Assembly (NCBI GenBank): GCA_964016885.1
Contig: OZ024747.1
Location: 15,252,001-15,316,000, forward strand
Reading direction: 5' to 3'
DNA: 64,000 nt
Source of the DNA: Eledone cirrhosa
Lineage: Eukaryota
This document shows positions 4,223 through 58,039 of the stretch, in pieces. The position numbers and the translations under genes are program-made. The notes under the pieces were generated by a model. The model did not search any database, was not told where the DNA came from, and saw only the letters and a program-made list of their open reading frames with translations. The stretch's first letter is position 1. Each line of letters starts with the position of its first letter.

Positions 4223-4632
4223 TAGGAGAGATGACCCCTTAGCCTTTGTCAAGGCAGAATTCTAGTAGAAGGAAAACTCTGATATAACACCTGCAACTCT
4301 GATGGTATCCAATGATGTTGACTTCTTCTTCTTTTTGGTAAATATCATCTTGGTTAAGAGAGTGCGACTGGCTTTGTGCAGTTCCTTTGCTCACTATAAA
4401 AGCTTCACGGCACAGGCATTGCTTTATATCTGGAGATCTCTCTGCACTTGTCGTCACATGGTACCATGGGCCAGGCACTATGTGTCAATAATTGTCACAA
4501 GTGTAGTGTTTGTACCAGAGTTTTCAAGTCGTTGGCTGGACTAAGAAGTCACACTCGTTCAGCACATCGGAGGGGGTTCTCCTACATGGATATAAAGTAG
4601 TGGCCGTACTCGAAAACCAGTTGGCAGCCACC
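4223..4632 (+). mobile_element. (TA)n-flanked non-coding element with short asymmetric inverted end
   Basis: Left end taggagagatgacccct resembles the inverse of agggggttctccta (~4571-4584), which is followed by a ~48-bp tail. TA tracts on both sides. Confidence 0.45.
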
Positions 4633-4754
4633 ATATATATATATATATATATATATATATATATATATATATATATATATATATATATATATACTATATA
4701 CATTGGAAGTGGTCGGACGTTGTATATTTAAGTAAGTAGGTGTAGTCGGATAAA

Positions 4755-5231
4755 CGTCGAAACGGCTTGGTGGAATGCAGCGGAAATTTACACAGTTATG
4801 CAGAATGACCCGAAGAGGCGGTGGGTTGACTTTTAGGGTACAAGCTTCCATGGGTACGGAGAAAATCGATGAAACAGGGATTTTCCATTCAAATTGAACT
4901 GAGATTAATCTGTGAACGCAGAAGTCAATATTTCGAGAAACGTTCCAACCGAACGAAGACAGGAAGACGATATTTTGATTCGTGTAGACGTTCCCTGGCA
5001 ATGAACGGGAAAAAAAGCGAGGATAATACGTCGTTATGTGGAACAAGAAGAACAATTTGATGCAACGACAAGACCAAGTTTATGGTATAAATGGAGTCGA
5101 TAGACTAATATTCTATTTAATATAACAGAATGATTTCCAGCCCAGTTTAAGAATGATGTAAATAAAATTGAAAACGAAAATGACAGAGGTTATTAAAATA
5201 GTAAAAGTAAATAGTGAAGATTTAGGCCAGT
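4755..5231 (+). repeat. Unclassified ~480-bp dispersed repeat, copy 1
   Basis: Highly similar to 23281-23761; diverged inverted copy at ~45560-45925. Confidence 0.85.
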
Positions 5232-5256
5232 ACATACATATATATAAATATATATA

Positions 5257-5381
5257 TGTGTGTGTGTGTGTGTGTGTGTGTGTGTGTGTGTGTGTGTGTG
5301 TGTGTGTGTGTGTGTGTGTGTGTGTGTGTGTGTGTGTGTGTGTGTGTGTGTGTGTGTGTGTGTGTGTGTGTGTGTGTGTGT
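5257..5381. repeat. (TG)n microsatellite
   Basis: Pure TG run. Confidence 0.98.
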
Positions 5382-55013: not shown

Positions 55014-55496
55014 AATGAAGAACCGACCAGGAGGTGTAACTGTCCGGATAGATCCATTTGCCCACTCGACAATAGATGCAGAGACCGTAATGTGATCTAC
55101 CAGTGCAACGTGAGGACGGATACCTCCAACAAAGCCTATATAGGACTTACCGCATGTGACTTCAAGACCCGGCTATACCAACATAGACATACCTTCCGAA
55201 ACCCGGCCCGGCGTCACGCCACTACACTTTCGGGCCACATATGGGACCTCAAGGACAACAACATCACCTATGATCTCACTTGGAGATTACTGTCCAGAGC
55301 CAATTCTTACACGGGAGGACGCCGTCCGTGCAATTTATGCTCGGAGGAAACTTTACAAATGCTGTTTTCGACGGACCAACTCCTAAACAAGAAAGATGAA
55401 CTAGTTACTGCATGTAAACATAGATTGCGTAGGACTTACCTCGCCCTCAAACCCCATAATGACCCGGGGGGGGGGGGGGGTAGACTAGGGCTATAA
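55014..55496 (+). pseudogene. PLE GIY-YIG endonuclease fragment, Naiad/Chlamys-like
   Basis: Stop-free frame: CNCPDRSICPLDNRC (CxCx5Cx5C)..VIYQC..YIGLT..FKTRLYQH..LSGHIWDLK..CNLCSEE..LNKKDEL..CKH. Confidence 0.88.
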
Positions 55497-56601
55497 CACC
55501 CCACTTGCCGATTTTGCAATGGGTAACCCCTGCTTGCCAAGGGAGACGTAAGATCTTCTTTTTATTTTTTTATTCTTTTATCGCTTCCTTTATTTCCTTC
55601 CCCCCTTCTCTCCTTAGTCCTTCTACCCCAGCTCTTCTCCTTTGTTGGCGTCTTTTCTCGCCCACCCGAGGCTGCCCTTTGGCCCCTTGTAGCCTTAGTA
55701 CCCCCACCCCCTCCCCTAGTCTATGATAGATTTGGCGGACTCCGCCTTTTATAGCAGTTGGTTTAGACCCCGGATACTTGCCCCCTTTTTCCGACCGCTC
55801 CCACTATTCTCCGTGCCTTCTATATTTCTTAGTGGCACTTATGCCTCATTTTCTCGTTTCAGTATTTCTTTCTTCGTTTTTTTTTGGAGACGGGGTGGAT
55901 TCTGAATTTATTTTTCCGTATTCTACCTTTACTTCGTACGAACTTTCATGTAGCTTGTTTTAGATCTTTTAGAGTTAGCATTAGTATATATTTTTTTTCG
56001 GGACTCAGAATTATTATCTCGTACTAGTTCACTTTGCTGCACTGGGTGGTTGCTGGCATTGTGCCCGGGATAGAAACCTTTATTATTTATTTCGTGGTAG
56101 TCTCTTTAGTATTTTGGCCCCTTTTGTTGACCCGTCACCGTATCATTTACGTACTTATACCTCTTAAAAGGGTCCTTGCCTATCCGTCCCACCTAGTTCA
56201 TTTACTTATTTCGTTATTTCTTTATTTCTTTCTTTACTTCTTTCTTTCTTTATTTATTTATTTATTCTAGCCTAACAATAGCTAGAGACCTAGGTCGTAG
56301 AACTTGCTTTACTCTTTTCTTTACACTTATTTGCTTTTCTTCACTCTCAGTATTTTTTCTTTCATATATATTTTTACCCCCATTGTTCTACCTACCGTTC
56401 CGACTTTCCCCCCTCCCCCTCCCCAGTATCTTCTTTGACCTCATGCCCAGCTGTAGCTGGCACTACCAACGCTTGATTGGGTCTACTCCACCCCCTCCCC
56501 TCTTTCTCCTACTGGCAGGTTTAGCCACCATCTCCCCTACTAATTTGCAATCACAGAATTACTACTGATTTTTGACAATCACTTTGACCATATATGGAAT
56601 T

Positions 56602-56695
56602 ACCCCTTGAGAAGATCGGCTATTTAAATACCAGGATAAATTTTCATTTAGTCCAGAATTAGCCGTCGAAACGGCTTGAGCTCGGCCGTCGGGGT
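56602..56695 (+). ncRNA. Type I hammerhead, U3-A8 core, long stem II loop (mirror at 54668-54756 minus)
   Basis: acccc-TTGAGAA-ga(t)cggcta...tagccgtc-GAAA-cggct tgagctc ggccg-TC|ggggt. Confidence 0.8.
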
Positions 56696-58039
56696 CTTAC
56701 TGGTTCCTATATATTATATATATATATATTATATATATATGTGTATATATATATTTATATATATATACATATATACATATATATATATGTATATATATAT
56801 ACATATATACATATATATATATATATATATATATATATATATATATATATATATATATATATATATATATATATATATATATATATATATATATATATAT
56901 ATATATATGTATGTATATATATAGATACATACATAATACGTCTATGTACAGGTGAAAGATACTTTTAAATTGAAAGTAATATATATCTTTGCCGCATATC
57001 TTCCCATATAAATGAACAAATATTTACAATATATTACACCATATACACATTTCAGATACCATAGTCTTTTGTTTTTACCGTCTACACATTGAATTCTTTA
57101 TATAATTCTTATTAAAATTCTGAAATATTCCCCATCTCTACCATCCCCACCTTAATCTCATCTATTGCCACCAACACCATTACCATCACCAATACAACCA
57201 ACAACACCAGAAACACCACAACTATTGCTTTCTATTACATATCGACCAAAATCTCTATTAACCCCTATCCTCCTAAAAAGGGACACAATAATTGATTTGA
57301 CGGTACATCAGGTCTGAAACATTTTGGTTGGTAATTGATGGATTGCGTTTTTCTCATAGACTTGCCTTTTTTGTCGGTAATGATGTGGTACTTAACAACA
57401 TCGCCCTCGTCACCAATCAAGTGGTATACCTCCACCTCCTCCAGATTATGTGAGTGAAGCTCGAAATAACAATAACAACAATAACAAACCATATAGTGTA
57501 CTCGATTTGCCGTGACTGGGAGGTTATTGATGACTAGATTCTAGATTCAAGCATGCTTTCGTTTGGCATACAAGTGTACACGTGGAAGCCAATCGGGAAA
57601 ACCTGTCAATGATGGATATCAGGTAGTATATCCAAATCTAATTCTGTTGAAAAATAAATACTTTCACAATTCCGAAATTCTTCTTTTTGCTGCACATGGC
57701 GTGATGCTATCACCAAACAATACACCTCAAAGAATTTGATCATATGGATCACACGTGTGCGGAATGCACCTACAACACCGTTTCAGAAAGGAGGCGCTGG
57801 GAAAATTCCAGTGATTTTTATATGGTTTATACTTCCACTCACCTCCCGAACAAAACATTGCTTGGTCATCTTCCGTATATCATGTCCAACGGTGCACTCA
57901 CCAAAGAGGTTCTCGGTAACACCACCAAACTTAATATCGACTGTGAGAATGAGACGGTACGAGCTGTCTGGGTTAATGGTTTATTTATTCTCTGTCAGAA
58001 TCCTGCATAATAAGGATTTTTAATTTAATAAGATCAGAA

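Follow-up and report, generated by a model that had tools for sequence, protein, structure and literature searches.

The Hydra clade of Penelope-like elements (PLEs) offers a close parallel for the palindromes considered here. In the portions of PMC8557442 available to us, the clade includes Hydra-1_Obim from an octopus, and inverted 5'-truncated copies, tails of 30-40 nt and a bias toward (TA)n are described. For the Poseidon element PAc, the accessible part of PMC11167929 reports that both target strands are cut and extended, that two start sites of the reverse transcriptase (RT) delimit the tail, and that ribozyme cleavage is dispensable in vitro. Pairs of PLE hammerheads on opposite strands, 100-700 bp apart, had already been noted in what we could consult of PMC4209133, and active Penelope families have been reported from an octopus in a study whose available text mentions neither palindromes nor hammerheads (PMC13282606). 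Inverted copies, tails, TA targeting, PLE hammerheads and retrozymes as PLE passengers are thus already published. Here we analyse a window of 64,000 nt from the 3.0-Gb genome of Eledone cirrhosa (contig OZ024747.1:15,252,001-15,316,000, forward strand), in which a preliminary description had recognised a community of hammerhead-bearing fold-back elements embedded in (TA)n.

We read these elements as head-to-head, 5'-truncated insertions into (TA)n of at least six PLE families and at least two non-coding tandem passengers, with palindromes that likely arose from two primings at the two cut ends of the target; we give this reading a probability of roughly three in four. Families are referred to by the letters A to N, labels coined in the present analysis. 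Each family has two fixed 3' end sites, and the stretch between them constitutes the tail, which ranges from about 38 nt (G) to 164 nt (D). One line of evidence for the reading is how the ends are paired. In a census of 60 fixed genome positions of 10 kb each (600 kb), treated with the same pipeline as the window and not picked on end type, 14 of 16 pairs join a tailed to a tail-less end. The same holds for 34 of 36 classifiable pairs in loci picked by protein match, where two further pairs were unclassified, so that the two samples combined give 48/52 (p 7e-11 against 0.5), and for all 10 classifiable pairs of the window. A family-blind search of the same 600 kb returned 33 asymmetric and 2 symmetric TA-bounded fold-backs, together with 64 other, unclassified inverted repeats.

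Such pairing would also be expected from a single priming followed by snap-back, in which one cDNA, started from the tail site, would fold onto itself and be copied in return, the product then being linked to the target's second end at the tail-less site. Snap-back would likewise account for private variants mirrored between arms and for the roughly 11 of 37 C pairs (a hand count) whose two arms hold equally long stretches of open reading frame (ORF), pairs that also fit two copies running off one broken RNA. However, it demands that the tail-less arm lie inside the tailed arm, and there are pairs in which the tail-less arm exceeds the tailed one in length, namely 4 of 16 long A pairs and 12 of 26 G pairs (both counted by hand, with the long A and C loci hand-picked on long ORFs or paired matches) and both long A pairs of the window (54576 and 6963). 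In these pairs neither arm is contained in the other, so the tailed arm cannot be a simple snap-back copy. As the sole route, snap-back is already contradicted, and we think it improbable overall; because either arm can be the longer, we favour two primings.

The junctions and end sites supply further detail. Arms of one locus have private variants in common and are 98-99.9% identical to each other, while in the untranslated region (UTR) separate loci diverge from the window copy by 4-9%. A junctions overlap by 1-18 nt in 11 of 17 cases. By hand count, TA or AT is the next sequence of the element at 12 of the 15 main end sites (p 0.002 with the null set generously at 0.4), a pattern suggestive of either pairing to the target or cutting directed at TA. 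To the eye, each of the two end sites in families A, B, D and G is followed by a similar short motif (for instance at 4340-4480 of locus L023), as if a start signal had been duplicated; the motif lies about 20 nt beyond each end site in A and directly at each in D.

An alternative is that the end sites reflect endonuclease cuts at TA-containing sites in double-stranded DNA or in a circular intermediate, rather than two RT starts. The TA or AT at 12 of 15 sites would suit a TA-cutting nuclease, tandem units suggest rolling copying, and resolution by the endonuclease (EN) is suggested as the source of tails in the accessible text of PMC8557442. Yet RT starts were mapped to both tail boundaries in vitro (PMC11167929, available portion), and the sharp 5' limit of the short copies described below is better matched by run-off from an RNA. 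We therefore regard cutting as an unlikely origin of the two sites and continue with two RT starts as the preferred one.

An origin from PLEs, as proposed in the preliminary description, is supported for the arms of six families (A-F), which can be identified by sequence comparison as PLE 3' ends. In other genome copies, A, B, D and E connect to Hydra-type RT/GIY-YIG ORFs and C and F to other PLE ORFs, the assignment to Hydra or Neptune/Nematis types being based on motifs rather than on an RT tree. Of the RT plus GIY-YIG parents that it had advised looking for, ORF-bearing units were recovered for A and C, and ORF links for B, D, E and F. The family A parent is a 3542-nt unit with a single ORF of 721 aa from the first Met, encoding a YRDD RT and, at its C-terminus, a GIY-YIG EN (YRDD at 415, VIY at 658 and YIG at 673 in locus L023). 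Its linker and EN carry CNCPDRSIC (CxCX5C), CNLC (CxxC) and CKH (CxH), the latter two placed around the conserved E and N, without CCHH; DKT at 184 stands in place of DKG, and RWR in place of RWK. DKT and RW[KR] are each found in 113 of 120 listed relatives, and relatives of the A protein are numerous (1921 among 7999 scored). All 150 scored genome matches are 96-100% identical. Long A copies show partial tandems and an 80-nt tail that equals the start of the next unit, and the family shows a preference for insertion into (TA)n. EN motifs of B and E resemble those of A, and D has a 6-residue spacing.

The family C parent is a 4129-nt unit with an open frame of 1217 residues, the end of which is held by the palindrome at 25879. 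All 150 scored matches are identical over 72 aa, and many are paired head-to-head. Its motifs comprise a CX4CxxC linker (C..CIIC upstream), CCHH, two Cys between VVY and YIG, and DKS at the position of DKG. Among the remaining families, the D tail continues into a Hydra-type ORF in 2 of 20 loci, a Hydra-type EN lies upstream of E in 2 of 20, B ends have the same Hydra-type EN upstream of them, in inverted orientation, in 4 loci, and F connects to CCHH-type PLE ORFs in three (L131, L138 and L139). H, J and N carry PLE-type hammerhead ends. Pfam recognised none of the A, C and D proteins. Elsewhere in the window, a Neptune-type GIY-YIG fragment at 11861-12420 (-) did match (PF01541, E 8e-6); through a short motif common to both, it is joined to a 42-nt stretch with full identity to the tail of the B-related element (13807-13848), a junction that possibly records a template switch across families.

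The preliminary description had also called most copies MITE-like hairpins. As miniature inverted-repeat transposable elements (MITEs) or fold-back DNA transposons, moved into TA sites by DDE transposases, they would be expected to be short, non-coding, palindromic and TA-flanked, which they are, and the J palindromes have a common turnaround region; any target-site duplication would be concealed within (TA)n. This explanation is at odds with the 33 asymmetric versus 2 symmetric fold-backs, with junctions that differ between copies, and with arms that equal PLE 3' ends; for A-F the ORF links refute it (no transposase query was made). J was considered as a clonally amplified hairpin and rejected, since it is solo in 19 of 30 tail-picked loci, folds back in the other 11, and has its loop in both orientations. 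The label MITE-like is misleading: the hairpins are not multiplied as a hairpin unit, many copies being solo, and we find a transposase-borne origin barely credible.

Hardly easier to credit is that the fold-backs are artefacts of assembly or sequencing. Some palindromes are near-perfect, with a C arm matching over 475 nt at 100%, as such artefacts would be. Arms of older copies, however, diverge by 1-15% and have spacers, a one-sided tail and family-specific stops, and in contigs of a single sample (three short-read runs) the tail-less end passes into TA at 54653, although none spans a whole palindrome.

In families A and B, stubs with a sharply defined 5' limit make up the majority of copies. 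Of 84 A arms encountered as bystanders, 75 have their start 42-62 nt upstream of the tail-less site, and B arm starts peak at 59-67 nt upstream. A 7-mer resembling an initiator lies upstream of this site, at a distance of 58 nt in A and 66 nt in B. Contig depth also falls steeply some 65 nt upstream of the tail-less site, but it is no measure of copy number and is given no weight here. In J, 8 of 30 loci begin at one place without a fold-back; no 5' start peak appeared in the small samples of C, D, E and F. The stub limit is a candidate RNA 5' end, in which case transcription would start inside the pseudo-long terminal repeat (pseudo-LTR), and an RT roadblock is a possible alternative cause. 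Penelope of Drosophila virilis has an internal promoter, according to the accessible part of PMC2377424.

Taken together, two primings could proceed as follows. The endonuclease would cut both strands of (TA)n, after which both DNA ends would prime on a single RNA, the first from its tail-less site and the second from its tail site, probably aided by 2-6 nt of pairing between target TA and UA or AU in the RNA. The two cDNAs would then join by microhomology at their 3' ends, followed by fill-in. Stubs would result when priming occurs at the tail copy near the RNA 5' end, such that the enzyme runs off at the start site inside the pseudo-LTR. The hammerhead would be a mere passenger in this scheme, with uncut RNA serving as template: all mapped end sites lie downstream of the predicted hammerhead cut, and the template would therefore be uncut there, as for PAc in vitro.

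Several points weigh against this account. Among the 52 pairs, two are tail-tail and two tail-less/tail-less; 3 of 15 end sites have no TA or AT; and snap-back explains the equal-length C arms as well. Homology-free priming is reported for PAc in the portion of PMC11167929 available to us. The link from B to an ORF is indirect and crosses microsatellite tracts, and within about 1.5 kb of H, J, N, G and I no ORF link came to light, with no direct search made for the parents of N. The initiator-like motif, spotted once the boundary was known, is a short one that recurs often (2 and 5 matches in 160 nt), and BLAST end extension may lengthen apparent junction overlaps by 1-2 nt. More generally, the mechanism is read entirely from inserted copies.

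In the window itself, self-comparison after simple-repeat masking yields 30 local inverted repeats, several of them cross-element, compared with 0 in each of 10 dinucleotide shuffles. The plan shared by the fold-backs, namely (TA)n, arm, turnaround, inverted arm and a one-sided tail, was seen at all 16 starts named in the preliminary description: each coincides with a local inverted repeat adjoining (TA)n, with (TA)n flush with one arm and a tail of 38-164 nt extending the other. Its placing of the community's start at 4223 did not hold up, as the self-comparison gave no inverted repeat over 4223-4633. Copies are mostly non-coding, as it had stated, except that two fold-backs, 54576-56709 and 25879-27502, contain GIY-YIG endonuclease fragments. 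The features are as follows.

54576-56709: family A (Hydra-type PLE), head-to-head insertion; tailed arm 54576-55016 (-), longer tail-less arm 55017-56709 (+)
55005-55496 (+): family A C-terminal GIY-YIG endonuclease fragment (CxCX5C, CxxC, CxH)
56598-56699 (+): type I hammerhead of family A, intact, U3-A8 variant; cut predicted after 56690; mirror core at 54751 (-)
6274-6473: family A stub; tail right; 3' half of hammerhead only
6963-7608: fold-back of A2, a subfamily of A; tail left; tail-less arm longer
31848-32034: family A stub, inverted repeat; 3' hammerhead half only
40138-40323: family A stub, inverted repeat; 3' hammerhead half only
40366-40551: family A stub, 99.5% identical to the 40138 copy and likely a local duplication; 3' hammerhead half only
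23168-23283: A-related (A3) fold-back, broken up by a repeat of about 490 nt
39262-39509: family B fold-back; intact CUGAUGA hammerhead core at 39395 (-)
12881-13059: B-related stub; tail right
13779-13949: B-related stub; tail left; core degenerate
39983-40106 (-): B-related solo end with tail
25879-27502: family C (Neptune/Nematis-type PLE); palindrome close to perfect, each arm with the endonuclease C-terminus; tail of 58 nt, right
13107-13743: family F fold-back; 45-nt tail left; CCHH-endonuclease PLE in other copies; no hammerhead found
43050-43344: family G fold-back; monomer of 272 nt, non-coding and tRNA-containing, of which positions 48-224 are present here
43382-43457: family H; minimal hammerhead end folded back, its core mutated in this copy
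46041-46184: family N mini fold-back; more N ends at 45924-45988 (+) and 46624-46776 (-)
46775-48405: family I head-to-head array of a 682-nt non-coding tandem unit; hammerhead in unit; retrozyme-like
48858-49182: family J fold-back; intact minimal U3-A8 hammerhead core at 49027 (-)
49588-50882: family D (Hydra-type PLE); fold-back with a 164-nt tail and, at 49839 (-), a hammerhead with CCGAAGA core
51783-52236: family E (Hydra-type PLE); fold-back with a hammerhead, core at 52142 (+), whose stem II is degenerate
8658-8726 (+): family M solo canonical hammerhead without fold-back
7693-7780 (-): D-related solo hammerhead end

A strict type I descriptor finds seven intact hammerheads in the window (8667+, 56607+, 54751-, 49839-, 49027-, 39395- and 7768-) and 0 in 20 shuffles. 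To call the whole community hammerhead-bearing is too broad. Hammerheads of E, H and I, degenerate in the window, are intact elsewhere (E in 14 of 20 loci, H in 14 of 25, I with one own match in 20), while F and G gave none in 20 loci each with one core mismatch allowed, and a hammerhead sought by eye in F was rejected. In the commonest stubs half a ribozyme is present: the short A stubs (6274, 31848, 40138 and 40366) start inside loop II and hold the 3' ribozyme half only. Family A has a U3-A8 core, a long loop II and a 5-bp stem III; among A-like copies, position 7 varies between subfamilies and U3 and A8 are mostly kept, with one copy having C3 with A8. J is a minimal U3-A8 form, D a U4C form and N, read by eye, a U4A-variant fold; B, E, H, I and M have canonical cores, and C has both core halves and stem II with no good stem I. 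Stem III is palindromic in D, E, H, J and M and extended in A, B, I and N.

Covariation, which the preliminary description had named as a check, lends modest support to the B-like hammerheads. In 13 such copies, 89% of cells are paired and 2 of 13 pairs have changed on both sides; 7 of 500 shuffles reach this score, which is the best of 7 registers and does not control for relatedness. Its suggestion that the ribozymes may be under-annotated is supported. Rfam run on 20 small regions gave a single weak hammerhead match (E 2.5) plus the G tRNA, and over the entire window its output was dominated by sub-threshold miRNA matches, several of which fell on stubs.

Families G and I likely borrow PLE enzymes, starting from multimeric or circular RNA. 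G is an ORF-less tandem monomer of 272 nt with a tRNA fold (Rfam RF00005, 42.4 bits against a gathering threshold of 29; also ARAGORN at relaxed score), A and B boxes in the tRNA-related region and no Rfam ribozyme match. Pol III would be stopped by the T5-6 run that comes directly behind the tRNA. The arrays are circularly permuted and up to about three monomers long; an arm starts at positions 1-4 in about 5 of 44 loci only, most being permuted or multimeric with PLE-type ends. Thirty of the 44 loci are head-to-head, comprising 26 with a tailed and a shorter end, 1 with two short ends, 3 unclear and none with two tails. The query used to pick 20 of the loci contained the tail; in the remaining 24, the rule is followed by 13 of 17 head-to-head loci. 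No partner PLE for G emerged by BLAST against the genome loci examined. Older relatives of G, at 70-88% identity, have the same tailed fold-back layout (L237, L206, L177, L295, L304 and L278), with the tRNA region kept in L206 and L177. I is a 682-nt unit with a hammerhead, tandem junctions in 5 of 20 loci, no PLE ORF match, and a strict hammerhead in 1 of 20 loci only.

The window is unusually dense, as the preliminary description had supposed: it holds 10 fold-backs per 64 kb versus 33 per 600 kb (3.5 per 64 kb) in the census, making it about 2.6-2.8 times denser than the genome average, and (TA)n makes up 7.7% of it versus 4.0% of the 60 samples. Extrapolation of the census suggests about 165,000 fold-backs genome-wide (95% Poisson interval 113,000-231,000) and about 125,000 strict hammerheads (81,000-184,000), both intervals being too narrow because of clustering, and so supports the view that these elements are a major source of palindromes and ribozymes. 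The 337 loci examined, themselves a biased set, contain 320 strict hammerhead matches of dozens of sequence types; there are therefore many more PLE-type families than the window shows.

More broadly, we advance, as a proposal to which we lend slightly less than even credence, a general rule for PLEs: one RNA would be primed twice, from each cut TA end, at two fixed UA-anchored sites, generating more than 100,000 palindromes, mostly run-off copies of the first 60-140 bases of the RNA. The same machinery would move the 272-nt ribozyme-less, tRNA-containing RNA, a PLE-dependent counterpart of short interspersed elements (SINEs), in which the tRNA fold would supply a promoter or processing signal as the hammerhead does in retrozymes.

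Other repeats accompany these insertions. Palindromes at 12653-12761 and 53753-53807 are not flush with (TA)n and carry no family letter. The repeat of about 490 nt recurs at 4755-5237, 23281-23766 and 45507-45906 and starts with an A-like hammerhead 3' half; one copy splits the A3 fold-back. Between TA tracts at 24336-25141 lies a 685-nt unit whose first 121 nt are repeated after it; it includes a CUGAUGA half core and makes up a pseudo-LTR-like tandem rather than a fold-back. At 25524-25747 a small hairpin at a TA edge is followed by a degenerate CCGAAGA hammerhead, with an intact relative in locus L168. The window also contains an intact-looking LINE ORF of 1014 residues at 28067-31111 (-) (APE endonuclease, RT and PHD finger; RTE-like), close relatives of which flank several genome loci examined, broken L1/Tx1-like ORF pieces at 20-2699 (-), and a SINE-like repeat of about 220 nt, tandem and dispersed, at 37758-38363, 63394-63992, 43607-43783 and 58040-58144.

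Our findings bear on questions that PMC8557442, in its accessible portion, names as open, namely how PLEs form inverted copies and why they prefer microsatellites. The one-tail rule, the pattern of either arm being longer and the TA-anchored ends yield concrete predictions for the existing in vitro assay. For annotation, palindromes and hammerheads each on the order of 10^5 (extrapolated) are at stake, with the ribozymes missed by Rfam and the stubs liable to be taken for MITEs or microRNAs. With G, the range of tRNA-derived passengers would come to include the Penelope machinery, and G, if confirmed, would be a new kind of passenger. In the literature covered, we found no description of twin priming or a pairing rule in PLEs, of TA-anchored ends, of run-off stubs or of a tRNA-derived PLE passenger; Repbase and subscription journals fall outside this coverage, and a prior description is possible.

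How do these families compare with known systems? Family A resembles the Hydra clade of C-terminal EN+ PLEs, as far as the available text of PMC8557442 describes it, in the C-terminal GIY-YIG with CxCX5C, CxxC and CxH and no CCHH, in DKT, in (TA)n targets, in a hammerhead near the 3' end and in an inverted 5'-truncated copy. It differs in its 3.5-kb length, long 3' UTR, 80-nt tail and U3-A8 hammerhead with a long loop II, whereas the Hydra ribozymes in the part of the supplement we could consult all have CUGANGA cores. Furthermore, several very young, high-copy families coexist here, and strict pairing of one tail per palindrome does not appear in the accessible portion of that paper. With PAc, on the evidence of the available part of PMC11167929, the elements here have in common two internal RT starts that bound the tail, cutting and extension of both strands, AT-rich targets and an uncleaved RNA substrate; the PAc starts are reported to be non-homologous to the target, in contrast to the 12 of 15 ends at TA or AT here, and that part of the paper leaves inverted copies undiscussed.

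The hammerheads are like those of PLEs in the consulted portion of PMC4209133, being type I with a palindromic stem III in D, E, H, J and M and including a U3-A8 core, and differ in the extended stem III of A, B, I and N and in the half motif of the short A stubs. G has the tRNA-like region, A and B boxes and small, non-autonomous character of tRNA-derived SINEs, of SMalpha from Schistosoma (PMC8490949) and of Helenus terminal-repeat retrotransposons in miniature (TRIMs; PMC10886601), as far as the accessible texts describe them. Unlike these, it forms circularly permuted multimers with PLE-type ends, mostly does not start at the tRNA, and has a T5-6 run and no LTR; SMalpha has a hammerhead and G is without one. 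Finally, G and I recall the metazoan non-LTR retrozymes (PMC7229834; bioRxiv 10.64898/2026.07.22.740005), which the available portions present as non-coding tandem monomers thought to be moved by PLEs, and I has a type I hammerhead. G differs from them in its tRNA fold and lack of a detectable hammerhead, and I in its unit of 682 nt as compared with reported circles of 170-400 nt; both differ in being inserted head-to-head with a single tail.

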